Positions 5,372-42,691 of a DNA stretch of 64,000 bases are shown here, one piece after another. Positions within the stretch are counted from its first letter, which is position 1; every line of letters starts with the position of its first letter. Origin of the DNA: Saccharofermentanales bacterium (GTDB lineage Bacteria; Bacillota; Clostridia; Saccharofermentanales; DTU023); contig JBMNJV010000001.1 of assembly GCA_050951845.1 (NCBI GenBank), positions 510,179-574,178 on the forward strand, given 5' to 3'. The position numbers were made by a program, and so were the translations under genes. The notes beneath the pieces were generated by a model. That model saw only the letters and a list, made by a program, of their open reading frames with translations. It was not told the origin of the DNA and did not search any database.

Positions 5372-5511
5372 ATAATTTACATGAATTTTATGTATTAATA
5401 TTTATTGCGGAGCATAATGAGGAATATATGCTAAAATAACCTGGGTGTGTAGCAGGAATAATTATTTGAAGTTCAGATAAGAGATTATTTACAATTTTTC
5501 AAAGGGATAAT

Positions 5512-6507
5512 ATGAAATTAAAATTAAATAATATTAATAAATCATTTGGCAAGGTTCACGTTTTACATGATGTTTCTTTTGAAGTAGATTCAGGGAGAGC
5601 GATGGGCTTTTTGGGACGTAACGGCTCGGGTAAAACAACCTCGATTCGCTGCATTATGGATATTTTCAAACCGGATAGCGGCGATATTTTGCTGGATGAT
5701 CAACCTTTCAAACCGCGTGAACTGAAAGTCGGTTATTTACCGGAAGAAAGAGGCATGTATGCCAAAGAGCCGATTCTGGAACAATTGATTTATTTCGGTC
5801 AGCTCAGAGGCGGCAGCAAAGCAGAGAGCAAGAAGTCGGCCGAAGCATGGCTTGAACGTTTTGACTTGTCAGAATATGCCAATAAAAAACTGGAAGTTTT
5901 ATCTAAGGGCAATCAGCAAAAGATTCAGATAATTCAGGCTTTTCTCAACGATCCGGAAATGATTATTTTGGATGAACCCTTCAGCGGATTGGATCCGGTC
6001 AATGCGGAACTGTTTAAGGATGCGATCAGAGATGCAATTAAGGCAAATAAATTAGTCATCTTTTCCTCGCATCAAATGGGATACGTTGAAGAGTTTTGTG
6101 ATGATATAACTTTAATCGATAAAGGTGATATTTTAATCAATGATTCATTAGCTGATGTTCAAGCTGAAATGAGTCAGGATAAGTATCGTTTAGAAGCAGT
6201 AAATATGAATCGGGAACAATTAAAGCAACGGCTCAAACAAATTGAGTCCGATCACAATTTCGGGCATGACCTGCTGGCGGCTGAAGATAAAATCTCTTTA
6301 ATTATCAACTTGAGCAATCTTGTACCTAATAATTTCTTGCAAAAAATCATTGCAGCAGAAATTCAGATAAAGAACTTTTCGGTATATTTACCGACTTTGA
6401 CCGATGTATTTTTACATTATGTAAAAGAACATGATGTATTAACTAATGGAATAAAAGGGCAAGATGATGAAAAAAACCGAGATGTTTCCTGCCGGGAGGA
6501 GAACTGA
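5512..6507 (+). CDS. ABC transporter ATP-binding protein (ABC-2 type)
   Basis: Walker A GRNGSGKTT, signature LSKGNQQK, Walker B IILDEPFSGLD. An ABC-2 permease follows. Confidence 0.8.
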   Translation: MKLKLNNINKSFGKVHVLHDVSFEVDSGRAMGFLGRNGSGKTTSIRCIMDIFKPDSGDILLDDQPFKPRELKVGYLPEERGMYAKEPILEQLIYFGQLRGGSKAESKKSAEAWLERFDLSEYANKKLEVLSKGNQQKIQIIQAFLNDPEMIILDEPFSGLDPVNAELFKDAIRDAIKANKLVIFSSHQMGYVEEFCDDITLIDKGDILINDSLADVQAEMSQDKYRLEAVNMNREQLKQRLKQIESDHNFGHDLLAAEDKISLIINLSNLVPNNFLQKIIAAEIQIKNFSVYLPTLTDVFLHYVKEHDVLTNGIKGQDDEKNRDVSCREEN

Positions 6508-9253: not shown

Positions 9254-9301
9254 TTAATACTTAGCTTAACACAAAGCAAAAGGAGATGTTTCAAATAAAA
9301 C

Positions 9302-9338
9302 AAACCCCGAAATCCGGACACGGACGGAGGGGTTTTAT
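9302..9338 (+). terminator. intrinsic terminator of dps
   Basis: Stem aaacccc/ggggttt with an inner tccg/cgga stem, followed by tttt. Confidence 0.6.
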
Positions 9339-9565
9339 CATGTGGAAATTCCTGGTATTTTGCGGAATCTGCATTTTATCTGCGATAGTACGGAAGTATT
9401 AAACATATCTACCTGTTCAAGCAGGTCTTATCTGATCTTACGGTGATTGTGAAATATAACACCCGAGAAGATACTGTATTAAAAGGTGCAATATTTGATA
9501 ATTGGACGTACTTCAGGGTATGATAAATATAGAATAGTATTAATTTAATAGAAAGGGTGAGCGCA

Positions 9566-10042
9566 ATGACTAATACTTTAGAAATGAATTTTGGCATTAT
9601 TTCCATCAATGACGCTATCAACAAATTTTTCGAGCATTATCCGGGTGATATTCTGACAAAAATCCGGTTAGCTCACAAAGGTCCATTTTACAAATATTCC
9701 TTTGTAGGAAATGACGGCAAAAATCGTCATTCACTCAAACTAAACGCACAGACGGGAGATATTATTAAAAATACTGTTAAGGCTCTTAAGCCGAAAGACC
9801 AAAAGCCTGTAAGACGAGATGCAAAAAAATTAAACTTGGAGGATATGTTGTCATTCAGCGAGATCAACGCTATCGCTTTAAAAGTTGCTCCGGTATCTAC
9901 TCCTATACAGTGGAAGCTGGACAGGAAAAAAGAGCGCACCTTGTGGAAAGTAAAAATTACAGATGAGCACGGTGCAAATATGCATGAAGTAAAACTGGAT
10001 GCCCAAAACGGCAGTTTGTTACAGGTAAAATTAAAAGGTTAG
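9566..10042 (+). CDS. PepSY-domain protein
   Basis: Two PepSY-like repeats (..YSFVGNDGKNRHSLKLNAQTGDII.. and ..WKVKITDEHGANMHEVKLDAQNGSLL..). Start refined to the ATG at 9566 after SD-like aagggtgag. Confidence 0.5.
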   Translation: MTNTLEMNFGIISINDAINKFFEHYPGDILTKIRLAHKGPFYKYSFVGNDGKNRHSLKLNAQTGDIIKNTVKALKPKDQKPVRRDAKKLNLEDMLSFSEINAIALKVAPVSTPIQWKLDRKKERTLWKVKITDEHGANMHEVKLDAQNGSLLQVKLKG

Positions 10043-11166
10043 TTATAACGCGAGGCTCTTCCTCCGTCACCTCTGCCTTCTTCCATCATTCCGAATGTCT
10101 CGACAAAAAATGTCCGAGACCGTAGCTTGTATTTGTCCGCAATGGTATTGAGTGCATCTTCAACAATATCCGCCATGACATGCGAATCGGCGACCGCACG
10201 TGCATTGATGACGAGTGAAATTGCGCTGTAGGGCTGAGTCAATTTTCGGTCATACTCAACATCGTAGTCAATGCCGATCAGACTCGCTTTAACAAAATCG
10301 TCTCCCTCGCCTGCTGCGAACGCCTTCAAATGCGGAACGTTATTATTGCTTGCTTTCAAACCCTTGCGGACTTGATTGAAAATATCTTCAACAACTTTAT
10401 TAAAATCAATATTTTTATCATTCTTTTCTTCAAAGAACACACGGCGGTTGTACCAGCTCAACAAATTTTCGGCGGCGATAAATGCTTCCGAGCCGTAGCC
10501 GATTTCACGATGTACAGCCGCTGCTTTGTGGGTCATCAGGTAATCAACAACCTCTTCAACTCCTTCACCTGTCAGAGCGGACATCGTAAAGACCGGGGTA
10601 TCGGGGAATGAAGCCTTGATAAACTCCACACGCTTTGCCTTTTCCTCCTCACTGATCAAATCCACTTTATTCAGCACAATCAGATCGGCTTCGGCCATTT
10701 GTGCTTCAAGCAAAAAGCGCATCTCGGCAGGCAGATTGATTTGCTCCGCTTCAGGCATCAGCATACGCATCCGCTCGGGATCAACAATACAGGTAAAAGG
10801 CATCAGGTCGAACTCTCCGGGCCTGCGTTCCGCAAGCTGTAAATATACGTGTTCAAGCGCCCCGATACCACAGCCCGGAATATCGGACATGATAACCGTA
10901 GCACCTTTATCAACCAACTGATTAAGCTTATCGACGAGATTTTCATGCTGATAACAGATGCAGTCGCCTGCAATCTGTGTAGTCAGTATGCCGGTCGTTG
11001 CCGTAAAGCCGGCATCAACGATATTGTCGGCACCGAGGTCATTGACGAGAATAGCCGCTTTACCATAGCGTTTGTCAATTATATTCCCGAATGCAATCAT
11101 CGAAGTCGTTTTTCCCGCTCCCAGGAATCCGCTTGTTACCATATACTTGGCTTTTGCTTGTGACAT
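10039..11166 (-). CDS. G3E-family P-loop GTPase, COG0523/CobW-like N-terminal domain with a long divergent C-terminal domain
   Basis: Walker A GFLGAGKTT, LVNDLG, a degenerate metal motif GDCICY (canonical family motif is CxCC), and NKxD as LNKVDL. SD ggagg lies 7 nt upstream. The stop overlaps the convergent PepSY stop by 4 nt. Confidence 0.6.
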   Translation of the reverse strand: MSQAKAKYMVTSGFLGAGKTTSMIAFGNIIDKRYGKAAILVNDLGADNIVDAGFTATTGILTTQIAGDCICYQHENLVDKLNQLVDKGATVIMSDIPGCGIGALEHVYLQLAERRPGEFDLMPFTCIVDPERMRMLMPEAEQINLPAEMRFLLEAQMAEADLIVLNKVDLISEEEKAKRVEFIKASFPDTPVFTMSALTGEGVEEVVDYLMTHKAAAVHREIGYGSEAFIAAENLLSWYNRRVFFEEKNDKNIDFNKVVEDIFNQVRKGLKASNNNVPHLKAFAAGEGDDFVKASLIGIDYDVEYDRKLTQPYSAISLVINARAVADSHVMADIVEDALNTIADKYKLRSRTFFVETFGMMEEGRGDGGRASRYN

Positions 11167-11234
11167 ATTAATTCCTCCGTCCCATCAATTAGTTTTCTTC
11201 TGTTTTTATTCTCTGATTTTATCTTCTGCGCCGG

Positions 11235-12572
11235 CTATCGGTACAGGGTTTTTCCCGTATCTGAACTCAAGTTATAACTGCAAAACGGAATGAGTTTTCC
11301 TTCCGGAGAAACCACGTGAATAAAGCAACGGCGAAGTCTGTTTAAATCCATCGTATATGCATCTTGAAAAGCCATGCCGGAAATTGCCAGAGACATGTTT
11401 TGCCGTTCTGTTAAAAATTCATCCAAAAATGATACATCAAGCGACCTTGTTTTTTCTGACGGAACGATTTCTTCGGGAGCTGTCCATTTGTTGGCTACGG
11501 CTCTTCGGGCCTGATCACTCGAAATACCGCAGCTGCAATCTTCGCCGCTGCTCAGAAGTGTCCAGTTTCCGTCTTTCACCATATAATTGGCATGAAATCC
11601 GCAGAGCGGATGTTCGGCATTGGAGGGCAAAAAGTCAGTCCTTTTCAGCTTTCTGTCTGTCTGATGTTCAATTTTTTTAAATAACTCGGGGAATGTGATT
11701 CGCGCATCATCTCCTGCAGAATATCTGCCGAAAAGAGAAACCGGCTGGAAGTGAACTCCGCGCACAATGGGCATGTTGTCAGCTGCATAGCGCAGTATGT
11801 CTCCGAGTTCATCATCGTTTGCACCTTTCATCACTGTCGGCACAAGAACAACCCCGATATGAGCTTCTTTGCAACGTTGCACTGCACGGAGCTTGTCTTC
11901 GATGATACTGCGTCCCCGGAGCGCGAAGTTTGCTTTATCGGAGAAACCGTCAAATTGCAGGAACACGGTTGAAAGCCCGGCTTCTTTAAGTTTTTCAACA
12001 TATCCTGACTCATTAGCTATGCGCAGACCATTCGTATTAAGTTGAAAAAATGAAAATCCTTTTTCTCTGCCCAGGCGGATGATTTCCGGGAGGTCATCCC
12101 GCATTGTCGGTTCTCCGCCGGAGAGCTGAATATTGAACGGACCGCCTTTTTCCATCAGCATCTCGTACCAACCGGCAATCGTTGTCAGATCCGGATCATC
12201 GGCAGTCTGTTCGCCGCCGGAGGAGGCAAAGCAGATCGGACAGCCAAGATTACAGCGCTGCGTTACCTCAATTAACACACAACACGTAGCCTGCAAGTGG
12301 TTTGCACAGATACCGCAGCCGTACGGACAATTACTCTTGAAATCCGGTTCGTCGATAACACGTGTCTTCCATCTGAGAAAGTCAAGCGGATTGTCCCACA
12401 CCGGAACACAAAAATCCCCGTGATCGGGGCAGGTTTTTTCCAGAAAGACACCATCTGCGCCTGCCGTATAACGTGCTTCAATCCTCTCAAGGCAAACAGG
12501 GCAGACACTCTTTGTTTCAGACAAAAGAAGGCGGTTGCCTTTTCCGTATTTGCGATTCGGTGCAGTTTTCAT
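11235..12572 (-). CDS. radical SAM enzyme with N-terminal Cys4 knuckle and twin CX3CX2C motifs (COG1964-like architecture)
   Basis: CPVC...CPDHGDFC near the N-terminus, then CPYGCGIC, then the canonical CNLGCPICF, QLSGGEPT and NTNG. 445 aa, 68 nt upstream of the GTPase gene on the same strand. Confidence 0.65.
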   Translation of the reverse strand: MKTAPNRKYGKGNRLLLSETKSVCPVCLERIEARYTAGADGVFLEKTCPDHGDFCVPVWDNPLDFLRWKTRVIDEPDFKSNCPYGCGICANHLQATCCVLIEVTQRCNLGCPICFASSGGEQTADDPDLTTIAGWYEMLMEKGGPFNIQLSGGEPTMRDDLPEIIRLGREKGFSFFQLNTNGLRIANESGYVEKLKEAGLSTVFLQFDGFSDKANFALRGRSIIEDKLRAVQRCKEAHIGVVLVPTVMKGANDDELGDILRYAADNMPIVRGVHFQPVSLFGRYSAGDDARITFPELFKKIEHQTDRKLKRTDFLPSNAEHPLCGFHANYMVKDGNWTLLSSGEDCSCGISSDQARRAVANKWTAPEEIVPSEKTRSLDVSFLDEFLTERQNMSLAISGMAFQDAYTMDLNRLRRCFIHVVSPEGKLIPFCSYNLSSDTGKTLYR

Positions 12573-12928
12573 CTGTCAATACCTCTTTCAAAGTAAGCTG
12601 TGTATATCCGGTTTTAGATAGGAATGTCTTAGCGTTGAAGTGTATCCTGAGTATGTGCAAAAATGGTTTTCCGCAGCAATTGTACGAAAAATATTTTTTG
12701 TCCGTCCGGTTCTCTTGGTCTTGTTAATAATAATGCAATAAATTAAGGTATTCGTAAAGCGAGCCGGCACCGAGTAAATGAAGCTGAACCGGTTATCTGC
12801 AACCCGAGTGTTCAGCTCCTTCTGCGAAAAAGATGTTCTGTCTTTTCAATCTGCGGAAAAGACGTTCTGCTTCTTCGATCAATACCGATAATTTTTCCCT
12901 GCAGAAAACAGACTTTTGAAAATAAATG

Positions 12929-12971
12929 AAAAAAAAGCTGTTATTGATACAAGAAATTGTATCAATAACTG
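12929..12971 (-). terminator. intrinsic terminator of the SGNH hydrolase gene
   Basis: Perfect 13-bp stem gttattgatacaa/ttgtatcaataac with a 4-nt loop, followed on the minus strand by agctttttttt. Confidence 0.7.
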
Positions 12972-13050
12972 CGTCATAGGTTGGCTAAGGACTAAAAACG
13001 AATAAAATCCGCTTGCTCTGCAAACCGGAATTTTACAAATCAGTTTTAGT

Positions 13051-13755
13051 TCAAGTTTCTAATAATCTTCCATTAATCTCTTTTGCTAATAATTTTGCAG
13101 TATTTGAACTAAAATGGACTCCGTCAACCGTTTGAACTAACCCCCTTTTAGTTGCAATCCGATCTTTGCTTTTGAGAAATAAAGTCATTGCAATTGCATC
13201 AAGTATCCTGGTTAAAAAACTCCATTTCCAACTATATACTTTCATTTCTCGCGGCAACGTTTCAGTCTGCAGTTTATATATATCAATAAAATCAAATCCA
13301 TATTTCTCGCAAATCAGTTTAATTATTTGATTTCTCCTAATTGTTTTATCATTAGGAAATTCTATTAGATTAATATATGGAATCCCGAATATAATTGCTT
13401 TTTTGCCACTTGTATATACCATTTTAATTAATGTTTCAAACTTACTTGAAAACTCTAAATCATCCTCTGTATATTTTTTAATCTTGTAACGAAAAGACAT
13501 TTGTAATTTCCAGTAAAAATCTGCTTTTTTAAGATAAGGAAGTAGTATGTCATTTGTACCAATGCCTAAAACGACTAAGTCAAAATCATCTCTCCTATTA
13601 TTTAACATCTTCTTCAGACGATTGCTTACTCCATATAAGGTATCTCCATTTAAACCTTTATTAACTATTTGTAGATTTTCACTTAGAAAAGATATATATG
13701 AATATCCTACGTTACCATAGGTTAAGCTATCTCCAATACAAAGTAATTTCAACAT
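13051..13755 (-). CDS. SGNH/GDSL-family hydrolase
   Basis: N-terminal block I CIGDSLTYGN, GTND block, C-terminal DGVHFS block. Start refined to the ATG at 13755 (MLKLLCIGDS) after aggggtg. The longer ORF reaching 13824 is probably an artefactual extension. Confidence 0.6.
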   Translation of the reverse strand: MLKLLCIGDSLTYGNVGYSYISFLSENLQIVNKGLNGDTLYGVSNRLKKMLNNRRDDFDLVVLGIGTNDILLPYLKKADFYWKLQMSFRYKIKKYTEDDLEFSSKFETLIKMVYTSGKKAIIFGIPYINLIEFPNDKTIRRNQIIKLICEKYGFDFIDIYKLQTETLPREMKVYSWKWSFLTRILDAIAMTLFLKSKDRIATKRGLVQTVDGVHFSSNTAKLLAKEINGRLLET

Positions 13756-14016
13756 TATCACCCCTGCAAATTCTAATTTATCTGATTGGTAATTGGCTTT
13801 CCTATATTCATTACACGTCTCCATTCAGGTGCAACTCCATCATCACCCAATATTCGTCCATTTCAATATTTCATCTCCTTACTGCTAAAAGAGTTTCTGA
13901 TATCTATTTTAAAATATCTGCATAACTTTTTAAAATATAAAATATACATGAGCAGACACATCAAAACTCTTCAAAGATAATCAGGGATTAAAAACACACC
14001 ATCATCACGCTGATAA

Positions 14017-14388
14017 GCATATTGTGTTCCTGTTATAATTTATTTTCATAACAAAGAAATTATATCTGCTTTTGTCTTATGTAGTACAAATTCCGGAGAG
14101 GAATCAATCGAATGGGAAAACATCAATTCAAAGTCACTTTACTTGGATCGTTTTGCAGTTAATGTTAATTATTCCAAAAAAGGCATCGGTAGCTTGATGA
14201 TTTCCAAAGCAAAACAAATCGCGAAAGAATCAGGAGCAGAATATTTAATACTGTTTGTTGTTGAAATAAACAAACCGGCAATACAATTTTATGAAAAAAA
14301 TAGTTTCAGGAAAGCAATCGGCATATACACTGAAGTTTTTGCTGATGGCTTCAAGCTTCGTCAATTCGGCTATGAAATAAAACTATAA
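14017..14388 (+). pseudogene. GNAT acetyltransferase remnant, N-terminally truncated
   Basis: The frame is open only from 14017 and has no ATG or SD. It encodes only the GNAT acetyl-CoA-binding core (LYLDRFAVNVNYSKKGIGSLMISKAKQIAKESGAEYLILFV...NKPAIQFYEKNSF). About 40 N-terminal residues are missing. Confidence 0.45.
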
Positions 14389-14439
14389 GAGATTCTAAAC
14401 TATCTCTGAAACACCTGTCCTATCAACGTTTCAGGACAT

Positions 14440-14478
14440 AAAAAAAGACGACTCAGAATTGTATCCGTTTTGTCGTCC
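14440..14478 (-). terminator. intrinsic terminator downstream of tRNA-Val
   Basis: On the minus strand: gacgac-loop-gtcgtc followed by ttttttt. Confidence 0.55.
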
Positions 14479-14483
14479 TTCTA

Positions 14484-14560
14484 TGGTGGGTGGTAGTGGA
14501 CTTGAACCACCGACCCCCTGCATGTCACGCAGGTACTCTAACCAGCTGAGCTAACCACCC
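14484..14560 (-). tRNA. tRNA-Val (anticodon GAC), CCA encoded
   Basis: The reverse complement folds as a cloverleaf. Acceptor gggtggt/accaccc, D-arm gctcagctggttagagt, anticodon stem cctgc/gcagg with loop gtGACat, T-arm ggtggttcaagtccact, 3' ACCA. Confidence 0.9.
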
Positions 14561-14580
14561 TTGTCTTTTTATGCTTACAA

Positions 14581-14609
14581 AGCATACCCCAGTTAAATAT
14601 TTTCGTCAA
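14581..14609 (-). promoter_or_regulatory. candidate sigma-A promoter of tRNA-Val
   Basis: Minus strand ttgacg-17 nt-tatgct, about 20 nt upstream of the tRNA 5' end. Confidence 0.45.
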
Positions 14610-14830
14610 GCAAACTTATTAATTTCAGCATTAATTTTTAGACTGGAACTAAACTTTACACTCTAGCATTTCAGTATTATTTCAGTATTATTATTGTTTC
14701 GAAACTTACTATGCTCTTTAGTTTTTAATTTTATTCTGTACGAATTATCATACAGAGTTTTACTGAAACATCGGAATTTCACATTGTTTTTGAGTTTTTT
14801 AAAATTCTTTTAGTATTACATCATAAAGAT

Positions 14831-14861
14831 TGAATATTACATGTTAAACATGTAATATTCA
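14831..14861. promoter_or_regulatory. 31-bp perfect palindrome, candidate operator of the DUF2975/HTH operon
   Basis: tgaatattacatgtt-a-aacatgtaatattca has 15-bp perfect arms. It lies 65 nt upstream of the operon start codon. Confidence 0.5.
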
Positions 14862-14925
14862 TCTATAAACATTGATAATACATAAAAGATACAATTGTAT
14901 GTCAATAATATTTGGAGGTATTATT

Positions 14926-15426
14926 ATGCAGAATCATCTTTTAAAAACAAATAAATTATCTAAAGTATTGATAGCTTTTGTAGGTTTAGGAATGCTGGGA
15001 ATCGTGTTGATTACACTTCTCATCAGTTACAATTTAGTCTTTTTCAGTCATGCGGTGGCAAAAGAAAATCCGGAGGTAGCCTATATGAGAATTCCGGTAT
15101 TGATTATTTCTGAATTAATTATCGGATTATTCCTAATAGCTTGTATTTTATCCTTTGGAGTATTACTCAATTATTGGAAAAATCGCATTTTCAGCAAAAG
15201 CTCCGTAGTTCTATTACGAATAATGAGTCTTTGTTTTGCATTGATTATAATTCCCTGTGTAATATTAATAATTTACACAATGCAAAATGTTGGCGGTTCA
15301 ATAACTAATCTTTGGGTTAATTTCGGCATTATCATCAGCTTTATTGCTGCATGTATTTTTGCACTAATCTCAAATATTGTTGAACAGGGTCTCAATTATA
15401 AAGAAGAAAACGAGCTTACGATCTAG
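14926..15426 (+). CDS. DUF2975-like membrane protein
   Basis: Four hydrophobic segments. Start refined to the ATG at 14926 after ggagg. It pairs with a downstream short XRE-type HTH, as is typical for this family. Confidence 0.5.
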   Translation: MQNHLLKTNKLSKVLIAFVGLGMLGIVLITLLISYNLVFFSHAVAKENPEVAYMRIPVLIISELIIGLFLIACILSFGVLLNYWKNRIFSKSSVVLLRIMSLCFALIIIPCVILIIYTMQNVGGSITNLWVNFGIIISFIAACIFALISNIVEQGLNYKEENELTI

Positions 15427-15438
15427 AAAGGAATTTTT

Positions 15439-15645
15439 ATGTCTATTATTGTCAATTTAGATGTTATGCTTGCTAAGCGAAAAATGACTTTGACCGAGCT
15501 TTCGGAAAAAATAGATTTGAGCTTGAATAATCTGTCTATTCTAAAAACAGGCAAAGCCAAAGCTATAAGATTCTCAACTTTAGAAAAAATTTGTGAAGTT
15601 TTAGAATGTCAGCCGGGTGATATTTTGGAATATAAAACGCTATAA
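15439..15645 (+). CDS. XRE-family helix-turn-helix regulator (YozG-like)
   Basis: 68 aa. MTLTELSEKIDLSLNNLSILKTGKAKAIRFSTLEKICEVLECQPGDILEY is the canonical short HTH_26/YozG pattern. Confidence 0.7.
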   Translation: MSIIVNLDVMLAKRKMTLTELSEKIDLSLNNLSILKTGKAKAIRFSTLEKICEVLECQPGDILEYKTL

Positions 15646-15890
15646 CAGGGTTAAATAATAAAAGCTGTTGCTTAGCCTTGAATATAATTATTCACTTATC
15701 TGTTTATTCAAATATATTTTATAAATACTGCAAACGACTTGGATCAGAAGCAATGATATTCTGTTTTTTTTATGCTATAGTATATCCATAAAACAATCTA
15801 TCTGCTACTAACTGCCAGCCTTTCACTCACTAATTACCTCAATCCTGAAAGGCTGGCACGTACAATTTAAAAAGAAGCTTGGAGGTTTCA

Positions 15891-16433
15891 ATGAATCCTT
15901 GGAACAGTCTGCCAAAGGAAAGAATTTTACCTGATGATTTTCTTGCTGTAATCGAGATCCCGAAGGGAAGCAAACAAAAATATGAAGTTGATAATCAAAC
16001 CGGTCTTTTACGTCTTGACCGAATTCTCTATACATCAACTCACTATCCGCAAAACTACGGTTTTATCCCCCAGACAACTTCTGATGACGGAGATCCTTTA
16101 GACGTTTTAGTTTTATGTTCAGAGAGTTTGACTCCTTTGTGCATGGTTCGCTGTTATCCGATCGGTGCAATAAAAATGACCGACGATGATCATATTGACG
16201 AAAAAATTATTGCGGTGCCTTTTGATGATCCGCAGATGAGTTTTTATCAGGATCTGACAGATTTACCGGATCATGTTTATAATGAAATTATGCATTTTTT
16301 CGAAGTTTATAAAGATTTGGAAAACATTAAAACAGATATTTTACGAATAGACGGACGAGAAGTTGCAAATGAAATTATTGCCAATAGTCTTGTTGCATAT
16401 GAAAAATCTCTTGCCGGCAAAAACGATAAATAA
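15891..16433 (+). CDS. ppa: family I inorganic pyrophosphatase
   Basis: VIEIPKGSKQKYEVD, NYGFIPQT..DGDPLDVLV and IDEKIIAV motifs. Start refined to the ATG at 15891 after ggagg. Confidence 0.85.
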   Translation: MNPWNSLPKERILPDDFLAVIEIPKGSKQKYEVDNQTGLLRLDRILYTSTHYPQNYGFIPQTTSDDGDPLDVLVLCSESLTPLCMVRCYPIGAIKMTDDDHIDEKIIAVPFDDPQMSFYQDLTDLPDHVYNEIMHFFEVYKDLENIKTDILRIDGREVANEIIANSLVAYEKSLAGKNDK

Positions 16434-16492
16434 AAAAATTATCATTGACGTTACCGGTTTTATTGCTGCATGAATTCAGATATCAATTGTTA

Positions 16493-16584
16493 CGGCTTAT
16501 TAGAATTTACATATTATTCGGCTTATTAGAATTTACATATTATTCGGCTTATTAGAATTTACATATTATTCAATCGCTTATAGC
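16493..16584. repeat. 26-bp tandem repeat, three copies plus the ancestral copy overlapping the gene 3' end
   Basis: cggcttattagaatttacatattatt repeats at 16493, 16519 and 16545. A diverged copy spans the stop codon of the J-domain gene. Confidence 0.85.
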
Positions 16585-17374
16585 GATCGATATTTTCTTG
16601 CGACAAAAATTCATATGCACTGCTGACTTCCTGGAATTTTTGGGTGGCATCAGGTGATTTGTTGATGTCCGGATGATATTCTTTAGCTTTTTTACGATAG
16701 GCAAGCTTAACCTGATATTCATCCGTGTTATACGGAATTCCCAACACATCACAATGTTTGCGATACTGCTGATTGAAATCAGCCGCAGGATTATAATAAC
16801 GGCCCTGCCCATAGCCGCCAGAACCGGATCCATATCCGCCGAACGGACCATAGCTCCCGGCTTCACCGGTAAATCCGCCGAAGAATTGTTCGAAGATTCT
16901 TGCCCACTGTTCCTGTTGCTGCTGTCTTCTTTTTTCGCGTTCCGCTGCTTCTTCGGCATATTTTCTTCTGCGTTCCGCCTCCTCTTGTGCAGCTTTTTGT
17001 CTTTTGTATTTATCACCATAAGAACCGAAAATCTGACCTTTAGAAGTTCCTTTAATCAAATCTTCCGATTTATCATACAAAAATTCACAGAGGACGTATT
17101 TCCAATATTCAAGAAAAGACACAAAACCTGATCCCAAAAACGGGAAAATAAAGATTATCAGTAAGGGTATCCATAACCAAATCGGCATCAAGCGAAATAA
17201 AAACGGACTGAAAAATAAAATTCCGATCGCGATTGGAGCAAGTACTTTTCGTATACGTTTTGTAATGTTTACTAAAAAGGATATACCTTTATTTAATCCG
17301 CCTAAAACCACATCCAAAAACTTGGCAATTCCAAAAATTATATATCCCCATATTTTCTTGAAAAATCTTTTCAT
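16559..17374 (-). CDS. membrane protein with C-terminal J (DnaJ) domain
   Basis: N-terminal TM segments, a charged ERRRKYAEEAAEREKRRQQQQE linker, a G/Y-rich tract, and a C-terminal J domain (..YRKKAKEYHPDINKSPDATQKFQEVSSAYEFL). Confidence 0.6.
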   Translation of the reverse strand: MKRFFKKIWGYIIFGIAKFLDVVLGGLNKGISFLVNITKRIRKVLAPIAIGILFFSPFLFRLMPIWLWIPLLIIFIFPFLGSGFVSFLEYWKYVLCEFLYDKSEDLIKGTSKGQIFGSYGDKYKRQKAAQEEAERRRKYAEEAAEREKRRQQQQEQWARIFEQFFGGFTGEAGSYGPFGGYGSGSGGYGQGRYYNPAADFNQQYRKHCDVLGIPYNTDEYQVKLAYRKKAKEYHPDINKSPDATQKFQEVSSAYEFLSQENIDRYKRLNNM

Positions 17375-17840
17375 TGTGTTTATAAAAATCTCAATTCTGT
17401 ATCACTCTTTATTGCTTCTGTTTTGACAATGTATATTATAACTGATTCTTTAATATTATATATCTTAAAATATCCTGAAAAATTCGGCATGAAATTTAAA
17501 GATATGCATGAAATTTTCCTGAAGATTCAGAAAAAATATCTGTTTTAATAATTTGAACTTAACAAAACTTGATTTGCTTATATCAATTTGGCGCTGATTA
17601 CTTTTCTTTTTATGATGTAATTTATGTTATTTTTATTCTATAATAAATTTAGAATTTATTGATCAGAAAAATCAGTAAATAATTAAAAAGATAAAAAACA
17701 TTCAAGCAGATATGCTCTGAAAAATAGTATAGTAACATGATAGTAGAGTAATGGAAGACAAGCGTACATTCTTACGTAATAAAAACAATAGAATAAATGA
17801 ATAGTATAAAGACTTGAACAATAGGAAATAGGAGGCAATT

Positions 17841-18560: not shown

Positions 18561-18664
18561 GGTTTAACAACCAATTATAATATTTAATAAATGTTAAATT
18601 GTAGCTTGTGTCTACAAGTGCAAATGGTTTAACAACCGATTATATTATTTAATAAATCTTAAAT
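18561..18664 (+). repeat. two 39-bp direct repeats flanking a short hairpin
   Basis: ggtttaacaacc[a/g]attata...atttaataaat[g/c]ttaaat at 18561-18599 and 18626-18664. The hairpin cttgt-gtct-acaag lies between them. Confidence 0.8.
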
Positions 18665-18668
18665 AGCA

Positions 18669-18726
18669 AAGATAACGCAGCAACTTGGTGAGAGAACTCC
18701 TAAAAAGCGGCGTTATCTTTTTTTTG
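18669..18726 (+). terminator. candidate intrinsic terminator after the AIM24-family gene
   Basis: Stem gataacgc/gcgttatc with a large ~31-nt loop, followed by tttttttt. Confidence 0.5.
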
Positions 18727-18758
18727 TCTTAAACTATATCTTATTCATTCAAGTACCT

Positions 18759-19002
18759 TGCACAGAATTTAAGGTTATACCGTAAATTTGTTGAATAAAC
18801 TTAAAAAGTGTGCAAGCCTAACCTGAAAAAGAGGTTTTTCTCAGAGTTCATGCACAGAATTTAAGGTTGTACCGTAAATTTGTTGAATAAACTTAAAAAG
18901 TGTGCAAACCCAACCTGAAAAAGAGGTTTTTCTCAGAGTTCATGCACAGAATTTAAGGTTGTACCGTAAATTTGTTGAATAAACTTAAAAAGTGTGCAAG
19001 CC
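18759..19002 (+). repeat. array A: three ~60-bp imperfect-palindrome units on a 92-bp period
   Basis: Units at 18759-18818, 18851-18910 and 18943-19002. Each reads tgcacagaatttaaggtt[a/g]taccgtaaatttgttgaataaacttaaaaagtgtgcaa[g/a]cc. The 32-bp linkers are near-identical to each other. Confidence 0.9.
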
Positions 19003-19930: not shown

Positions 19931-21880
19931 TTAATCTTTAGCGAAAGTGTCTACTTCATGTTGCAGGCGTTCGATTAACTCTGCTTCACTCATTGTTCCG
20001 AGGTCACCGGCTTTTCGTTGACGCACAGAATAGTTTTGATTTTCGATTTCCTGATCGCCCATGACTAACATATAGGGAATTTTTTCCAATTGGGCATCGC
20101 GAATTTTTCGTCCTACTTTTTCATTTCTGCTATCGACTTTTACACGGAAACCTGCGGCAGTTAAACGACTGGCAGCATCTTTGGCGCCTTGGACATGTTT
20201 TTCAGCAATAGGCAAGATTATGATTTGTTCCGGTGCAACCCATAAGGGAAGAGCTCCGGCGTATTTTTCAATTAATAGAGCAAGAGTTCTTTCATAACAA
20301 CCGATCGAGGTTCTGTGAATGATATGAGGATGTTTTTTCTCACCGTTATTATCGATGTAAACCATATCAAAACGTTCTGCCAACTGGAAGTCGATTTGGA
20401 TTGTAATAAGTGTATCTTCTTTACCGAAGACATTTCTGATTTGAATATCTAATTTCGGACCGTAAAATGCTGCTTCACCGATACCGGTTTCGTATTCGAT
20501 TCCGGTTGAATCCAAAATGGCCTGCATTGAGTCTTGGGCATTTTGCCATTCATGAGGATCCCCGATGTATTTGTCTTTATTGTCCGGATCCCAAATTGAA
20601 AAACGATAGCTGACATCTTGATCCAAACCTAATGCTTCGAGCATGAAGTTTGCCAGATCAAATGCCCCGAGAAATTCCTCTTTCAATTGATCCGGAGTCA
20701 CCATTATATGCGCCTCGGAAATTGTGAATTGTCTAAGCCTGATTAATCCGTGCATTTCTCCGGAAGATTCATTGCGGAACAGAGTTGAAGTTTCATTCAA
20801 TCGGATAGGCAAATCGCGATAACTTCTGGTTTCAGCCTTATAAATCTGATATTGGAAAGGACAGGTCATCGGACGCAGAGCATAAGCCGTTTCACCATCT
20901 TTTTCTTCCGGATCGCCCATGATAAACATACCGTCACGGTAATGATCCCAATGACCGGAAATCTTAAACAAATCGGATTTGGCAATCAGCGGTGTTTTAG
21001 TAATTTGATAACCGCGTTTTTGCTCTTCATCTTCAACGAAACGTTCTAAGATTTGCAGAGTTTTTGCACCTTTGGGCATAAACAGGGGCAAGCCCTGACC
21101 GATAAAATCAATAGTTGTAAAGTAGCCGAGTTCACGCCCTAATTTATTATGGTCACGTTTTCTGGCCTCTTCCATTTGAACCAAATACTCTTTTAATTGT
21201 TTTTTATCCGGAAAACTGATTCCATAAATACGTTGCAGCATTTTATTTTTTTCATCGCCCCGCCAATAGGCACCGGAAACTTGCAGTAACTTGAAAGCTT
21301 TGACCATACCGGTATTCATTATGTGCGGACCGGCACATAAATCAATAAAATCACCTTGCTTATAAAATGAAATTGTTTCATCAAGCGGTAAATCTTCGAT
21401 CAATTCGACTTTATAGTCTTCATTAATATTTTTTGCCCATTGTAAAGCATCGTCACGTGACAGAGTATAAAATTCAAGCGGCAGATTTTCCTTTACGATA
21501 TTCTGCATTTCTTTTTCAATTTTTTCTAAATCATCATTCGTGAAATTTTGTTCCAAATCAATATCATAATAAAAACCGTTTTCAATTGCCGGACCGATCG
21601 CCAACATCGCATCAGGATATAAACGCTTAATCGCTTGCGCCATGATATGTGAAGTTGTATGCCAAAAAGCCTTTTTGCCTGCTTTTTGCTCAAATTTCAA
21701 TAATTCCAATGTGTCACCGTCATTGAGTATTGTTCTGAGATCAACATCAACCCCGTTAACTTTTGCCAGACAGACATTTCTTGCAAGATTTTCACTGATA
21801 GCCGTCGCCGCATCGAATGCAGAAGCATTCTTTTCCAATTGTAACTGCGAACCATCTTTTAATTTAATTTCTATACTCAT
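19931..21880 (-). CDS. thrS: threonine--tRNA ligase
   Basis: 649 aa with an N-terminal TGS domain, the editing-domain HTTSH motif, class II core motifs (FRNESSGEMHGLIRLRQFT) and an anticodon-binding domain. Confidence 0.92.
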   Translation of the reverse strand: MSIEIKLKDGSQLQLEKNASAFDAATAISENLARNVCLAKVNGVDVDLRTILNDGDTLELLKFEQKAGKKAFWHTTSHIMAQAIKRLYPDAMLAIGPAIENGFYYDIDLEQNFTNDDLEKIEKEMQNIVKENLPLEFYTLSRDDALQWAKNINEDYKVELIEDLPLDETISFYKQGDFIDLCAGPHIMNTGMVKAFKLLQVSGAYWRGDEKNKMLQRIYGISFPDKKQLKEYLVQMEEARKRDHNKLGRELGYFTTIDFIGQGLPLFMPKGAKTLQILERFVEDEEQKRGYQITKTPLIAKSDLFKISGHWDHYRDGMFIMGDPEEKDGETAYALRPMTCPFQYQIYKAETRSYRDLPIRLNETSTLFRNESSGEMHGLIRLRQFTISEAHIMVTPDQLKEEFLGAFDLANFMLEALGLDQDVSYRFSIWDPDNKDKYIGDPHEWQNAQDSMQAILDSTGIEYETGIGEAAFYGPKLDIQIRNVFGKEDTLITIQIDFQLAERFDMVYIDNNGEKKHPHIIHRTSIGCYERTLALLIEKYAGALPLWVAPEQIIILPIAEKHVQGAKDAASRLTAAGFRVKVDSRNEKVGRKIRDAQLEKIPYMLVMGDQEIENQNYSVRQRKAGDLGTMSEAELIERLQHEVDTFAKD

Positions 21881-22077
21881 TTCTTTCTCCTGTTATCTGA
21901 ACTTGTTATGTTAATTTTTTATTACCCAAATTATTCCTTTTTTACTACTCAAACAATTTCTTTTTTATAACCCGAATTATTTCTAACATTATTATCTTAA
22001 CTTATTTACTCTATAACTTATTATTCTCAAAATCATCCGAATAAAAATTTTATTCCCGAGATGTATTATCTTAAAAT

Positions 22078-22312
22078 AAAAAACACCGTTGAGCCTCGCC
22101 CAAGGGTGCATCACACGTTTCCACCTTGTATTTAACTTAATTCTATCCTTGACGCAGATTCACGGTACTACTTAGTCTTAGTAACAAGAGTTCGTAGACG
22201 GCTCCGGAGTGGTTTTCATTGAGGATCAGATAAAAAGACTTACAGCCACGATCTTTTCTCTCTTAAACTGAATTTCCCAATTACTCGTTCCATCAATGCC
22301 TTTATTTAACTG
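22078..22312 (-). promoter_or_regulatory. T-box leader (Thr specifier ACC) of thrS
   Basis: The minus strand carries an AGAGAG element and a specifier-loop-like gaaaACCActccgg (ACC at 22213-22211). The T-box-like sequence ggtggaaacgtgtga lies at 22125-22111. A terminator hairpin cacccttgggc-gag-gctcaacggtg is followed by tttttt. Confidence 0.7.
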
Positions 22313-22383: not shown

Positions 22384-22625
22384 GCTTGCACACTTTTTAA
22401 GCTTATTCAGCAATCTGTCGGTACAACCTTAAATTCTGTGCTGATTCTTCAATAAAGCCTTGCTTTTGTGCGGTGCTTGCACACTTTTTAAGCTTATTCA
22501 GCAATCTGTCGGTACAACCTTAAATTCTGTGCCGATTCTTCCAATAAAGCTTCGTTTTTGTGTGGTGCATGCACACTTTTTAAGCTTATTCAGCAATCCG
22601 CCGGTACAACCTTAAATTCTGTGCA
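22384..22625 (-). repeat. array B: three ~58-bp units of the same palindrome family on a 91-92-bp period, inverted relative to array A
   Basis: Units at 22384-22441, 22475-22532 and 22567-22625. The reverse complement reads (t)gcacagaatttaaggttgtaccgacagattgctgaataagcttaaaaagtgtgcaagc. Confidence 0.9.
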
Positions 22626-22913
22626 GATTATAAAATTAATTTGTATAATAGAAAATCATAAATAACGATCTACTTTAAGGAAACGATTCTGATAAAACTC
22701 GTTTAACAAAATATTACGATGGTGTTTATCACTATTTGAAATCAATTGGTCTAAGCGAAATATAGATTATGGCGAACGTTTAATTTAAAAGAAAATGGAT
22801 ATAAGAGAAAGTGTGTTTCGCTTGTAAATTCCAAAACATGAAATAAGCGCACTTTTTGACTGAACGCTCTGAACCCGCAGGCACGTAATTTTTGGCACAT
22901 CTATCGTTCTATC

Positions 22914-35266: not shown

Positions 35267-38200
35267 ATGAAACCGGTCAGACTTTGTTTAGCTGCATTCG
35301 GACCTTTTGCAGCAGAAATTGAAATTGATTTTCAACCGTACCAAAACGGTTTATTTTTAATTTCCGGTGACACCGGTTCCGGTAAAACTACTATCTTTGA
35401 TGCGTATATGTTTGCTCTTTATGGAGAAACAACCCAGACTGAACGTGATGCCGGACAAATGCGCAGTGATTTTGCCACTCCCGCCACCAAGACTTTTGTG
35501 GAATTAGAATTTAAGGTTAAAGATCAAATTTATAAAATAAGACGTGAACCATCCTACTTACGTCCGAAAATGCGCGGGGAGGGTATGGTTTCCAATCCGA
35601 GCCGGGTAGAGCTGACTTTACCGGGTGGTAAGATTTTGACTTTACAAAAAGAAGTCAAAGATAAAGTTGAATCACTTTTGGGTTTGGATGCGGATCAGTT
35701 CAAACAAACCGGACTTTTACCGCAAGGTGATTTCAAACAATTATTATCTTCAGATCAATCACAACGGGAACAAATTTTTCGTAAAATTTTCAATACGAAG
35801 AATATTATCGCATTCCAAGAATTGCTGAAACAAGAAGTCGCAAACTTGTCCCGAATCAGAGATCTTAAGCAAAGAGATTTGGTACAAGCGATTCATCATA
35901 TAGAGTGGTTTACCGACATAGAAAAACTGCATTTACAGGAGAACCCGGATCTGCCGAATACAATCGAGAACCCGGACCTGCCGAATATAATCGAGTACCC
36001 GGATTCACCGAATACAATCGAGAACCCGGACTCACCGGAATTAATCGAAAACTTAGACCCGCCGAATATAATGAAAAAACCGGATTTAAACGAGTTAAGA
36101 GAATTGGCGGAACATATCAATAACGGTGAACTGAGTTTTTTAAAGCAATTTTTTGAACTGTTTGAAACATACATCGGAGATTTAAAGACTTATCACAATC
36201 AACTTGGTTTAAAAGATCAAAAACTTAGTACTGCCAGAGACAAGAAGCAAGTAATATATCAGAAAGCACTTGATATCAGCAGGATTTTTAATGAACTGGA
36301 GATTAAAAACAAAGAATTGGCTGATTTGGAGACGGTATTGACTGAAATGCAAGTCAGAAAAAAATCCTTTGATATTTATAAATTTGTCGCATTAAATATT
36401 GCCGGAACATTCAGACAGTGGACGCACAATCAAAAATCTTTGACGGACAAAGCAAGTTCACTGGAAAACAATTTGCATAATCTGGATCAAGTTACCAACA
36501 ATTTAGCAGAGGCTGAAAAACAATATCTGACTTGGCAAAACCGGTCAGCAGAAATTGAGAGGGATGCGATATCACTGAACAAATTAAAAGAAGAATTGTC
36601 TGCTTATGCTCAACATGAAAAAATGAAGCTTGATTTGAATAATTTGGATAATGAGCAAGCGAAACTTGAAAAACAAAAAGCGGAATTGGAGCAGATAAAA
36701 CAAGGTTTAGCTGAGCAAAACCGGAAGTTGGAACAACAAATTGCAGATTTGAAACAAGTTGAATTTGACAATAATAAGTTAATTATCGAACAAAATAATC
36801 TGAATACGGTTTACGCTAAACAGGCCAATAATCTGGAAAGTTGGCAATTTTTGCGCAATCAAGCAGCAGAAATAAACAGTTTGACAATTCAATATGAAGA
36901 TGTTGCTGAAAAGCTTGAGCAGGCCGAATCGGAACTTACCTCGTATCGTGTATCGGAAAAACAACAAACCGCAGCTTTTCTGGCCAAAGATTTAATGCAA
37001 GGGACTCCGTGTCCGGTTTGCGGTCAAACGCATCATCTGAAATTAGCCGAATTTGACCAAAATTTTTCTGAAGAAATTCTTCGCGAAAAAGAGCAATTAT
37101 TCAATAAACTTCAAAAGCAGGCAACTGATCTGAAAATTGAACTTGGCGGTATCAAAACCGGTCACACTCAACTTTTGACAACACTGGAAAAAAGTTTTGC
37201 CAATGAAAAACAAGAAATAAACCGAAAATCAAATCAAAAAACAGATCAGAAAACAGATCAGAAAACAGATCCGAAAACAAGTTTCGACTTGACATCTGAC
37301 ATTAAATATACAGAATTCCAAGCGGCTGCGGATGAGTTGTTTAATCGTATTTCGGAAATCTCGGAAATCATTGCGACACAAACAGAGCAACTGAAAGCAC
37401 TTCCTCAATTACAAGAAGCACTTGCAAATAATGAAGCTCAAACATTGAACAACTTGTCTGATTTACAAAAAATTGAGGAAAAATTAAATGCCGCTTTATT
37501 AGACAGAACCAAGCTCGGTACAAAACTGGAAAACTTAGAGCAAAATCTGCAATATGAAAACTTGCAACAAGCAGAGCAAGCTTTTGACCGATTGAATTCT
37601 GCGTATAAAGCAAAAATTAAAGCCGGACAAGTTGCTGCGGACTATTATAATCAACTCTTACGTGAAAAAAGCAGTTTCGATTCAACAATCAAACAGATCA
37701 AAAGCGATATGGATGCTTTGGCGATACAACAAACTGAATTGGTGGCGGAAATTACTGAGAAATCAGCTCAGGTCGGGATACAGTTTTCTGATCTCGATCA
37801 ATATATTTGGTCACCGGATCGGTTAAATCAAGAAGAAAATGCGATTAACAGATATTTCACACAATTGGATAATTTACGTCAAGCTGTAAATGAATTAACT
37901 GCGAAAATCCAAGGTAAAAGCAAACCGGATTTGGAAGAAATCAGTGCTGAATTGCAGCAAGCGGAACAGGTTCTGCAAGAATTAAGAACGCAGCTGACAT
38001 CGCTCGGTCTCATAATTGAAAAAAATGTTTCCTTAGCCGAAATCTTTGCTGCAGATATGCAAGATTATCAAAACTACGCCAAAAAAGCTGCTGAGCTTTC
38101 ATACTTATCCGGACTGGCCAACGGTTTAACCGGTGCGGGCAGAAGAACATTTGAGGCTTTTGTCCAATCATATTATTTTCAGAGAATGCTTGAAGCGAGT

Positions 38201-38656: not shown

Positions 38657-38736
38657 CGGCACTTTTAAGAAAGATTCGGCACTTTTGAGAAAGGTCCGGC
38701 ACTTTTGAGAAAGGTTCGGCACTTTTGAGAAAGTTG
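38657..38736. repeat. four tandem 20-bp direct repeats in a convergent intergenic region
   Basis: [c/t]cggcactttt[a/g]agaaag[a/g/t]t repeats at 38657, 38677, 38697 and 38717. Confidence 0.85.
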
Positions 38737-40309: not shown

Positions 40310-40403
40310 TCTAATATCCAGTAAGGCAATATATAATTGTAAAATTAATTATAATAAAAAAGGGGTTGTCACAAAAATTTAAGTTTTGCAAATATTAATT
40401 CAG

Positions 40404-40670
40404 AAATAGGAAATCCAAGAATTCTTTGCACATTATTTAAGATTGTACACGAAAAAGCTTGCACACCCTTAGAAAGTGTGCAAGTTTAGTTTTGGAAATA
40501 GGAAATCCAAGAATTCTTTGCACATTATTTAAGATTGTACACGAAAAAACTTGCACATCCTTAAAAAGTGTGCAAGTTCAGTGCTAAAAATAAGGAATAT
40601 AAGAAATATTCGCACATTATTTAAAGTTGTACACGATTAAACTTGCACATCCTTAAAAAGTGTGCAAGTT
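40404..40670 (+). repeat. array C: three ~59-bp units of the palindrome family on a 92-bp period
   Basis: Units at 40426-40484, 40518-40576 and 40610-40668. Unit 1 reads ttgcacattatttaagattgtacacgaaaaagcttgcacacccttagaaagtgtgcaag. The linkers are related to each other. Confidence 0.9.
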
Positions 40671-40719
40671 CATGGTTGTTGAGTTGTGAGCGTCAAACCT
40701 ATCGGCGTTCCAATCAGAT

Positions 40720-42273: not shown

Positions 42274-42334
42274 GCCTTTATTTTACCATTTCAGGGAAAA
42301 TAAAACAAGCTGAAAAGCCTTTATCTCAGTGCTT

Positions 42335-42691
42335 TCAGACGATTTTAGGTGCTGTTTTTCGTTGTGGGATTTTAGGGGCGATTACCTGCATACCACGCAT
42401 CAGAAAGTTGTATTGTTCTGGCGTAATCTCTGATAATTCTGTCGGGGTTCTTGGCCATTGGAAACGACCGGCTTCCAAACGTTTGTACAGCAGAAGAAAA
42501 CCGTCCCCTTCCCACAATAATCCTTTAATCCGATCAGTGCGCCGACCACAAAATAAAAACAGATCATGAGTCTTCAGGTCTTTGCCATAGTTTTCTTGGA
42601 CGAGAGCACATAGACCATCTATACCTTTGCGAAGATCTGTATAACCTAAGGCCAGATAAATTTTCCCTTTTGTCCGGTAATCTTTTAACAT
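42335..42691 (-). CDS. tnpB: IS66 Orf2 (TnpB accessory protein)
   Basis: 118 aa. ..DLRKGIDGLCALVQE...LFLFCGRRTDRIKGLLWEGDGFLLLYKRLE.GRFQWP is the canonical IS66 Orf2 signature. Confidence 0.9.
   Translation of the reverse strand: MLKDYRTKGKIYLALGYTDLRKGIDGLCALVQENYGKDLKTHDLFLFCGRRTDRIKGLLWEGDGFLLLYKRLEAGRFQWPRTPTELSEITPEQYNFLMRGMQVIAPKIPQRKTAPKIV

Follow-up and report, generated by a model that had tools for sequence, protein, structure and literature searches.

Three places in the 64,000-nucleotide stretch of clostridial DNA analysed here (hereafter, the window) carry a short array of a palindromic repeat, and the question they raise is whether these arrays do something for the host, as structured RNA or as binding sites, or are copies of a dispersed element that the genome tolerates. 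An earlier note on this DNA had described them as an unclassified family and had preferred an RNA-level or transcription-coupled role to selfish insertion. Tandem Repeats Finder identified period-92 arrays at 18759-18999 (2.6 copies, 97% matches, score 461), 22384-22629 (2.7 copies, 93% matches, score 422), and 40402-40672 (2.9 copies, 88% matches, score 409). The pattern of the 5' arm has nine true matches in the window, vs 0.16 expected from shuffles of the same sequence, and that of the 3' arm has nine vs 0.36; the observed number was reached in 0 of 100 shuffles. A covariance model run with no filters found exactly nine units in the 64 kb and no other credible one. The units score 55-83 bits in the sense orientation (43 bits for a unit truncated by an insertion sequence) and 33-44 bits in antisense, so that sense is better by 20-40 bits. 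The model also has a marginal match at 15780-15892, where an ordinary hairpin resembling a terminator, and no unit, is present. The three arrays lie on the strands given in the earlier note (+, -, and +), and the distances between unit starts (92/92, 91/92, and 92/92 bp in arrays A, B, and C) agree with the fixed period of 91-92 bp that it had reported. The arrays and their units, all arranged head-to-tail, are as follows.

18758-19002, plus strand: array A (Tandem Repeats Finder, nhmmer, and covariance model, 62-83 bits)
18758-18849 and 18850-18941, plus strand: first two units of array A, each a palindrome and its linker; the last palindrome is at 18942-19002
22384-22626, minus strand: array B (Tandem Repeats Finder and covariance model)
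22535-22626 and 22444-22534, minus strand: first two units of array B; the last palindrome is at 22384-22443
40426-40685, plus strand: array C (Tandem Repeats Finder and covariance model)
40426-40517, 40518-40609, and 40610-40685, plus strand: the three units of array C, the last linker being cut by the insertion of an IS66-family element

The edges of the arrays are less regular. Linker-like sequence extends for about 15 nt 5' of the first unit of array A, and the leading edge of array C shows a linker-like stretch (40387-40425) and a degenerate arm-like stretch (around 40368-40392).

We aligned one unit from each of 47 arrays and found that the repeat unit is the entire 92 bp. It is made of a 57-bp imperfect palindrome (columns 2-57) and a 35-bp linker (columns 58-92). 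The arms of the palindrome read TGCACAC-TA-TTTAAGG... and ...CCTTAAA-AA-GTGTGCA, and the commonest stem, which is also that of the family consensus, pairs GCACACTATTTAAGG with CCTTAAAAAGTGTGC over 15 bp with one conserved A.A mismatch. The units of arrays A and B are a variant of this stem with a 3x3 internal loop: their predicted fold has 6 bp, the internal loop, and then at least 6 bp, and that of the units of array C has 15 pairs and one mismatch. These predicted minimum-energy folds are the hairpin geometry that had been proposed at the outset. The folds of the units of A and B are only marginally better than those of shuffled sequence (z-scores of -1.1 to -1.9), and array C units reach -3.2 and -3.5. 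The linker has a family consensus of its own (..CAnCCCGgnAAAGCCGGTTTTAnCAAAG..), with several positions conserved in at least 90% of the units. The linkers of the window are diverged forms of this consensus and for that reason had been taken as unrelated between loci, a view that does not hold. A coding repeat was rejected by inspection, the period of 92 bp not being a multiple of 3 and the arms containing stop codons.

To place the family, we scanned 185,579 species genomes with one pattern. The scan returned 70 loci, a handful of which are single, chance-like matches. The remaining ones come from three MAGs of anaerobic digesters labelled 'Clostridiaceae bacterium' (JAAYRL, JAAYNE, and DUPV), together with two contigs from a MAG of the same sample. 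The window and JAAYRL share about 92% identity in their proteins, the three MAGs share 88-91% with one another, and the whole set spans 88-92%, so the repeat-bearing genomes make up one genus-level clade. Judged by its sequence, the window is that of a sister species lying outside the scanned genome collection. A scan of metagenomes recovered the family almost exclusively from one JGI sample series, and viral contigs, plasmids, and phages gave no match to it. The claim of an unclassified family is upheld. At the gathering threshold, Rfam identified only tRNA in the whole window, and a permissive search of each array gave noise below the threshold, for instance plant miRNA models with scores of about 20 bits. 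Searches of the literature for the names of the MAGs and for REP/RAYT in Firmicutes found nothing. The family is previously undescribed and lineage-restricted.

A profile HMM run over 719 kb, including the relatives' loci, counted 364 units in 109 arrays. The spacing of neighbours is exactly 92 bp in 200 of the 249 pairs and 91-93 bp in 91% of them, with minor classes at 71 bp (a deletion in the linker) and 102 bp (an insertion in the linker). The size of complete arrays ranges from 1 to 10 units, and three is the most frequent number (23 out of 71). The statement that each array has exactly three units thus stands for the window and fails for the family, and is best seen as a coincidence of the window given this range. 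The MAG JAAYRL alone has about 40 array-bearing loci. The family is extragenic: 65 out of 68 arrays show no overlap with any predicted ORF.

Comparisons between close relatives show that the arrays change by whole units and come and go. Array A has three units in the window and in three other contigs, and two in one conspecific JGI contig, the AIM24 protein being identical; two short-read contigs stop exactly at its start. It is absent from the orthologous site of JAAYRL, where an unrelated 12-bp microsatellite takes its place. Conversely, JAAYRL carries an array just after a terminator, in antisense (L061), and another right at a stop codon (L019), and the counterparts of both sites in the window lack an array. 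The JAAYRL orthologue of array B (L029) has six units with alternating periods of 92 and 71 bp. At four sets of orthologous loci, all three MAGs have arrays, which differ in the number of units. The distribution of the family is a dispersed one, with changes in copy number by whole units and gain or loss between close relatives.

The patterns of identity are in line with this turnover. Within an array, the mean pairwise identity is 96% in the arms, 83% in the loop, and 70% in the linker, as expected from the within-locus homogeneity noted earlier. Between orthologous arrays of different species it is 90%, 63%, and 50%, respectively, and between non-orthologous arrays of the same genome 92%, 62%, and 53%. 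Orthologous arrays are thus no more alike than unrelated ones, which implies that local amplification and homogenisation outpace speciation, while the arms are constant across the clade. The copies at a locus are nearly identical because each locus amplifies and contracts head-to-tail in steps of 92 bp, and loops and linkers drift apart from one locus to the next. The conservation of the palindromic arms that had been claimed from the window alone extends across species, at about 90% identity.

Arrays are also interrupted by insertion sequences, one of which lies in the window. The features at the end of array C are the following.

40686-43145, minus strand: IS66-family element (Pfam DDE_Tnp_IS66, E 3e-85, and TnpB_IS66, E 2e-35)
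43154-43190, plus strand: terminal degenerate half-unit, or 'cap', of array C (GGTTTCTGCTCAAAATTTTGAGCTATGCAAATTTTGATT), an exact match to the cap motif

The IS66-family element has 23-bp terminal inverted repeats and is flanked by an 8-bp target duplication (GTTGAGTT, at 40678-40685 and 43146-43153). It lies inside the last linker of array C, is separate from the repeat family, and splits the 'cap' from the rest of the array. In a relative (locus L066), the 5' arm of a unit is interrupted by an IS110-family element, which lies exactly after ...CACACTATTTAAG. The ends of both elements are unrelated to the arms of the repeat. The target of the IS110-family insertion reads ...CTATTTAAG|GTTG....

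A 'cap' (TTTCTGCTCAGAATTT...) was found at no more than about 50 nt from the end of the array in approximately 28 cases, around a quarter of the arrays in the related genomes, on either side of the array and in either orientation. It looks like a decayed terminal unit and not like a separate module. We searched the surroundings of the arrays for a gene that recurs with them. An all-against-all BLAST of 498 flanking ORFs gave no recurrent neighbour or transposase, the only groups being ABC-ATPase-type paralogues and sets of orthologues. A tblastn search for a Y1/IS200-like gene with a TnpA sequence of IS608 as the query gave no match at E<1 in the 719 kb, which is weak evidence. Six solitary units show no visible target-site duplication.

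The genes and signals around the arrays bear on whether they are part of transcripts. The relevant features of the window are these.

18671-18727, plus strand: terminator-like hairpin (GATAACGC...GCGTTATC, then a T run), read from the sequence
22347-22319, minus strand: promoter-like site of thrS, from the promoter scan
22099-22305, minus strand: T-box leader of thrS (Rfam, 74 bits, E 5e-16, the gathering score of 93 not being reached)
19931-21880: ThrRS domains, from the domain search

The terminator-like hairpin at 18671-18727 is directly upstream of array A and is kept in the sister species; it is missing from the list of the consensus scan because its loop is long. The -35 hexamer of the thrS promoter follows 37 bp after the end of array B. 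The sister species JAAYRL has an array at the same place upstream of this promoter and lacks the TRIC gene there, so the position of array B downstream of a TRIC-family gene, to which the earlier note had given weight, is coincidental. Once the IS66-family element is removed, array C is found between a DUF436 gene and a bidirectional terminator (43230-43265). A simple consensus scan gave no convincing sigma-70-type match in the units, as had been stated for sigma-A promoters; arrays A and B had none, and the only one in array C was weak and in antisense. The scan for terminator-like sites found none on the sense strand of the three arrays, and all it listed were antisense sites, each particular to array B or C. 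The main hairpin has an A+T-rich composition, and GTCCAGCC follows it in place of a T run. A Rho-independent terminator, which has a G+C-rich stem with a U run directly after it, is thus ruled out by the composition of the stem, the lack of a sense-strand site, and the lack of a T run.

We analysed the placement of the arrays family-wide, with genes called crudely as long ORFs and with three arrays re-oriented by the orientation of their linkers. Spacers between convergent genes account for 15 of the 42 array-bearing spacers (36%) vs 31 of the 350 other spacers (9%), and those between divergent genes for only 3 of the 42. This bias between the classes of spacers is significant (chi-square, p=2e-6). 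In spacers between genes of the same strand, 16 arrays are co-oriented with the genes and 11 are anti-oriented (p=0.44). The elements therefore favour the 3' ends of genes and avoid promoter regions, with no preferred strand. The copies are in tolerant intergenic DNA, mostly near gene 3' ends and sometimes just after terminators.

One functional reading is that the arrays are strand-specific structured RNA, either tandem small RNAs or a cis-element of the 3' UTR, co-transcribed with the upstream gene. The three arrays of the window are indeed co-oriented with their upstream genes, as had been observed, and family-wide 40 out of 57 arrays share the strand of their upstream gene. Many arrays start 10-30 nt past a stop codon and fill the whole of a convergent spacer, so that some transcription of these is unavoidable. 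Two positions of the stem often show T:G wobbles, and a short hairpin in the linker is followed by a T run. However, the only spacers that are informative on orientation, those between same-strand genes, show the near-even split given above, and array A follows a terminator-like hairpin, as the antisense JAAYRL array at L061 follows a terminator. The structural evidence also argues against an RNA. RNAalifold retains only the two invariant 5-bp stems, with compensatory changes in 0 of 10 pairs, and no measure of covariation exceeded column shuffles, either for the full hairpin or for the candidate hairpin of the linker. The latter was an idea of our own (AACCT/AGGTT, AAAGC/GCTTT, and TTGGA/TCCAA); it pairs in only 59% of the cells, its covariation is not above that of shuffles, and it was rejected. 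G:U pairs are about as numerous as A:C ones (331 vs 294), an asymmetry too small to signal a strand-specific structure, and in 47 representatives the mean folding z is -3.2 in sense and -3.45 in antisense (p=0.36). Together with the lack of promoter-like sites in arrays A and B, the single weak antisense one in C, and the lack of an Rfam match, these results make an RNA role quite improbable. The earlier note had itself named random orientation, variable unit number, and the absence of covariation in the arms as evidence for a selfish palindrome, and the data show all three, so its preference for a transcription-coupled role is not retained.

The other explanations dispense with RNA. If the arrays were clustered double-stranded sites of a host protein, involved in nucleoid organisation, insulation, or termination at gene ends, they would be selected by the host and immobile. 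Both arms are invariant, with 22 invariant columns among 47 arrays of four species, and remain about 90% identical between species while loops and linkers decay; this strong conservation of the arms and of part of the linker, where several positions are at least 90% conserved, fits a DNA-binding protein equally well. The retention of arrays at orthologous loci in three species, the lack of orientation bias, and the negative searches for a transposase beside the arrays and for a Y1/IS200-like one in the 719 kb also go in this direction. However, sister species and strains differ freely in whether an array is present and in its copy number, insertion sequences interrupt the arrays, and the edges carry decayed half-units. 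The avoidance of divergent, promoter-bearing spacers is expected of sequences that are tolerated rather than needed, and 92 bp would not be a whole number of helical turns. We regard such sites as unlikely. Plain neutral minisatellites, arising by independent local duplications with neither mobilisation nor constraint, would explain the VNTR-like copy numbers, and also the alternation of 92- and 71-bp units in L029 and of two subtypes in L012, which looks like unequal crossing-over. But one 92-bp unit is present at about 100 unrelated loci, which independent origin cannot explain, and the arms are about 90% identical across species when the loops and linkers of orthologous arrays are at background similarity. 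This makes neutral minisatellites very improbable. Finally, palindromic elements at regular spacing evoke degenerate or orphan CRISPR-like arrays, and there is a weak, non-significant match to CRISPR-DR44 (E 1.6) at 18637-18664, outside array A. Against this, the repeated unit is the whole 92 bp, the arrays are 88-97% conserved including their 'spacers', which share a family consensus, and the palindrome has 57 bp compared with the 24-48 bp of CRISPR repeats (PMC3733652). There are also about 40 arrays per genome, and no Cas family was identified in the ten proteins adjoining the three arrays. The arrays are almost certainly not of CRISPR origin, in agreement with the initial description.

We conclude that the family, which is non-coding and lineage-specific, probably belongs to the REP/BIME kind of interspersed repeats and is not a dedicated regulatory RNA. 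The arms are under constraint, neither strand nor covariation leaves a signal in the arrays, and insertion sequences land in them. In such a repeat, the arms may be held constant because a trans-acting protein, by which the element is mobilised or amplified, recognises them as a hairpin or as a site, by analogy with TnpA-REP and BIMEs; alternatively, copies with damaged arms may simply be lost. Local changes in copy number could arise by replication slippage, unequal recombination, or enzyme-mediated strand transfer. Effects on the host would be side effects: hairpins in read-through transcripts of either strand, substrates of rearrangements, and places where insertion sequences land. Several results speak against this reading: no recurrent gene or transposase next to the arrays and no Y1/IS200-like gene in the 719 kb were found, the GTAG/CGTC tag is absent, the halves of the palindrome do not fold by themselves as E. 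coli REPs do, and the units of A and B fold only marginally better than shuffles. The element is only putatively mobile, as its solitary units show no target-site duplication. A more specific proposal, which we make tentatively and think rather doubtful, is that of a REPIN/BIME analogue in Clostridia, independent of GTAG and RAYT. A putative single-copy enzyme, HUH-type or other, would excise, re-insert, and amplify the element in steps of 92 bp, with the invariant 15-nt arms and the semi-conserved linker as its substrate.

The arrays have practical consequences. They break short-read assemblies of these anaerobic-digester Clostridia, provide strain markers of the VNTR type, and mark sites of rearrangement and of IS insertion. 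Their broader interest depends on how they relate to known repeats. Most descriptions of REP/BIME-type systems come from outside Firmicutes, and the defining features of these systems are a GTAG tag and a RAYT partner. A family of Clostridia that behaves alike in populations and has neither hallmark would extend the REP/BIME phenomenon. A partner enzyme, should there be one, would make for a second, independent example. If that enzyme amplifies the element as proposed above, a partnership of 'domesticated transposase plus hairpin repeat' would have evolved separately in Firmicutes. In the absence of such an enzyme, the family would be one more lineage-specific selfish or neutral repeat.

Several classes of repeats share part of these traits. 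MITEs are also short, non-coding, intergenic, restricted to one lineage, and ended by inverted repeats, and the arms of the present family could be such terminal inverted repeats. However, the six solitary units show no visible duplication, no parent insertion sequence with matching ends was found in the DNA examined, and the head-to-tail array is the dominant form, which is unusual for MITEs. MIRU-VNTRs are intergenic minisatellites of 40-100 bp that are scattered over tens of loci and differ in copy number from strain to strain; the MIRUs are oriented with operons, contain short overlapping reading frames, and are not long palindromes. By description, our family resembles them in its dispersal between genes at tens of loci and in the variation of copy number between strains. 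It differs in being palindromic, in having a period that is not a multiple of 3, and in its unbiased orientation. The BOX elements of pneumococci have the structure boxA-boxB(n)-boxC, with distinct end modules A and C and a repeated boxB module of 45 nt. The likeness, again by description, includes the Firmicute host, the intergenic location, the modularity with variable internal repeats, the stem-loops, and the lack of a transposase of their own. In contrast to BOX, the 92-bp unit of our family itself contains the hairpin, and in place of end modules only around a quarter of the arrays show the degenerate 'cap' at an edge.

The closest comparison is with REP systems, in which a single-copy Y1 transposase gene (RAYT/TnpA-REP) is flanked by the repeats. 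The differences concern the unit and its partner. REP units have 20-40 nt and are themselves imperfect palindromes, a BIME being the combination of a REP and an inverted REP (PMC3333891). One end of the REP carries a conserved tetranucleotide, GTAG or CGTC (PMC3733652, PMC3333891), and the main text of a survey of GTAG repeats mentions Firmicutes or Clostridia nowhere (PMC3733652). The clostridial family lacks GTAG and CGTC in its consensus and in the invariant columns of the 47 representatives; GTAG is present in only 3 of the 47 rows, at the variable 3' end of the linker. Its palindrome is predicted to form a single 57-bp hairpin, the halves of which pair with each other and not within themselves, and its linker is long (35 bp), nearly fixed in length, and has a consensus of its own, unlike those of BIMEs. 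The host is a Clostridia-like Firmicute, and the search of the 719 kb examined turned up no RAYT gene. The likeness is one of genomic behaviour. In BIME-2 clusters, multiple copies stand in tandem and differ little within one locus, the linkers change from locus to locus, and strains differ in the number of copies; REPs are also known targets of insertion sequences (PMC3333891). As in the BIME-2 and atypical BIME clusters of Escherichia coli (PMC3333891, PMC3116915), the clostridial repeats are palindromic, intergenic, present in high copy number, and in tandem at each locus. Their copies at one locus are conserved, the linkers of different loci diverge, and the number of copies changes from locus to locus and from strain to strain. 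They share with E. coli BIME clusters a preference for the 3' ends of genes, the role of targets for insertion sequences, and a unit size of the same order.

Gene order within 9259-17400 of the window is not the same as in the sister species, the anaerobic-digester MAG JAAYRL. Each of the three JAAYRL junctions examined, at loci L012, L019 and L020, carries an array of the 92-bp unit (10, 4 and 3 units, respectively), and the corresponding junctions of the window have no such array. This pattern suggests a role for the arrays as mediators or markers of rearrangement. The spacer that holds array A has itself changed between the two species. Between the AIM24-family gene and the terminator upstream of array A, there is a 39-bp direct duplication (18561-18599 and 18626-18664; 92% identity, copies 65 bp apart), and the stretch with its first copy is missing from the sister species. 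At the orthologous site (about 5480-5640 of the JAAYRL locus L029), the latter has, where the window has array A, another short tandem repeat of 12 bp (AAGATTCTCAAA-like). Hypervariability of this spacer thus takes more than one form.

Arrays are also found interrupted by insertion sequences. The last linker of array C holds a complete IS66-family element bounded by 23-bp terminal inverted repeats, which encodes TnpC and TnpB and has a further ORF region upstream:

40686-43145, complete IS66-family element
40720-42273, TnpC
42335-42691, TnpB
40678-40685 and 43146-43153, 8-bp target duplication (GTTGAGTT)

In a relative, an array of locus L066 is split by an IS110-family element (1557-3159 of L066; also L117), inserted exactly after ...CACACTATTTAAG in the 5' arm of a unit. 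Its transposase (409 aa, with the domains DEDD_Tnp_IS110 and Transposase_20) is followed on the 3' side of the gene by a non-coding stretch of approximately 330 nt.

The neighbourhood of array B includes the thrS gene and its leader, which a default Rfam search does not return because its 74 bits fall below the gathering score of 93:

19931-21880, minus strand, thrS gene
22099-22305, minus strand, T-box leader of thrS (74 bits, E-value 5e-16)
22347-22319, minus strand, promoter-like site of thrS

The window contains other tandem repeats. The intergenic ones, with periods of 26, 20 and 23 bp, bear no relation to the 92-bp family:

16493-16571, 26 bp x 3, 100% identical
38657-38733, 20 bp x 3.8, 92% identical
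21915-21984, 23 bp x 3, 76% identical

A further set, with short periods of 9-27 bp (1569-1731, 35912-36086 and 51361-51528), appears to be coding. Among them are CAT/CAC/GAT-rich triplet repeats, a repeat of 27 bp within an ORF of 1120 aa, and one of 21 bp with 98% identity.

A variant of the unit with a 102-bp period, owing to 10 additional linker bases, occurs on a contig of 44.7% G+C binned as Bacteroidales (L055, 3895-4156; L064), with a 16-bp tandem repeat ahead of it. The tetranucleotide profile of a second contig of this bin is that of the Clostridiaceae clade (r=0.97), and this contig has probably been placed in the wrong bin. Finally, a degenerate half-unit, or cap, with a small palindrome of its own (e.g., GCTCAAAATTTTGAGC), recurs at array ends in either orientation, both in the window (43154-43190) and at the array edges of L001, L009, L013, L014, L019, L023, L027, L033, and L047. 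The cap may be a terminal copy that has decayed, or else the progenitor from which the 92-bp family arose.
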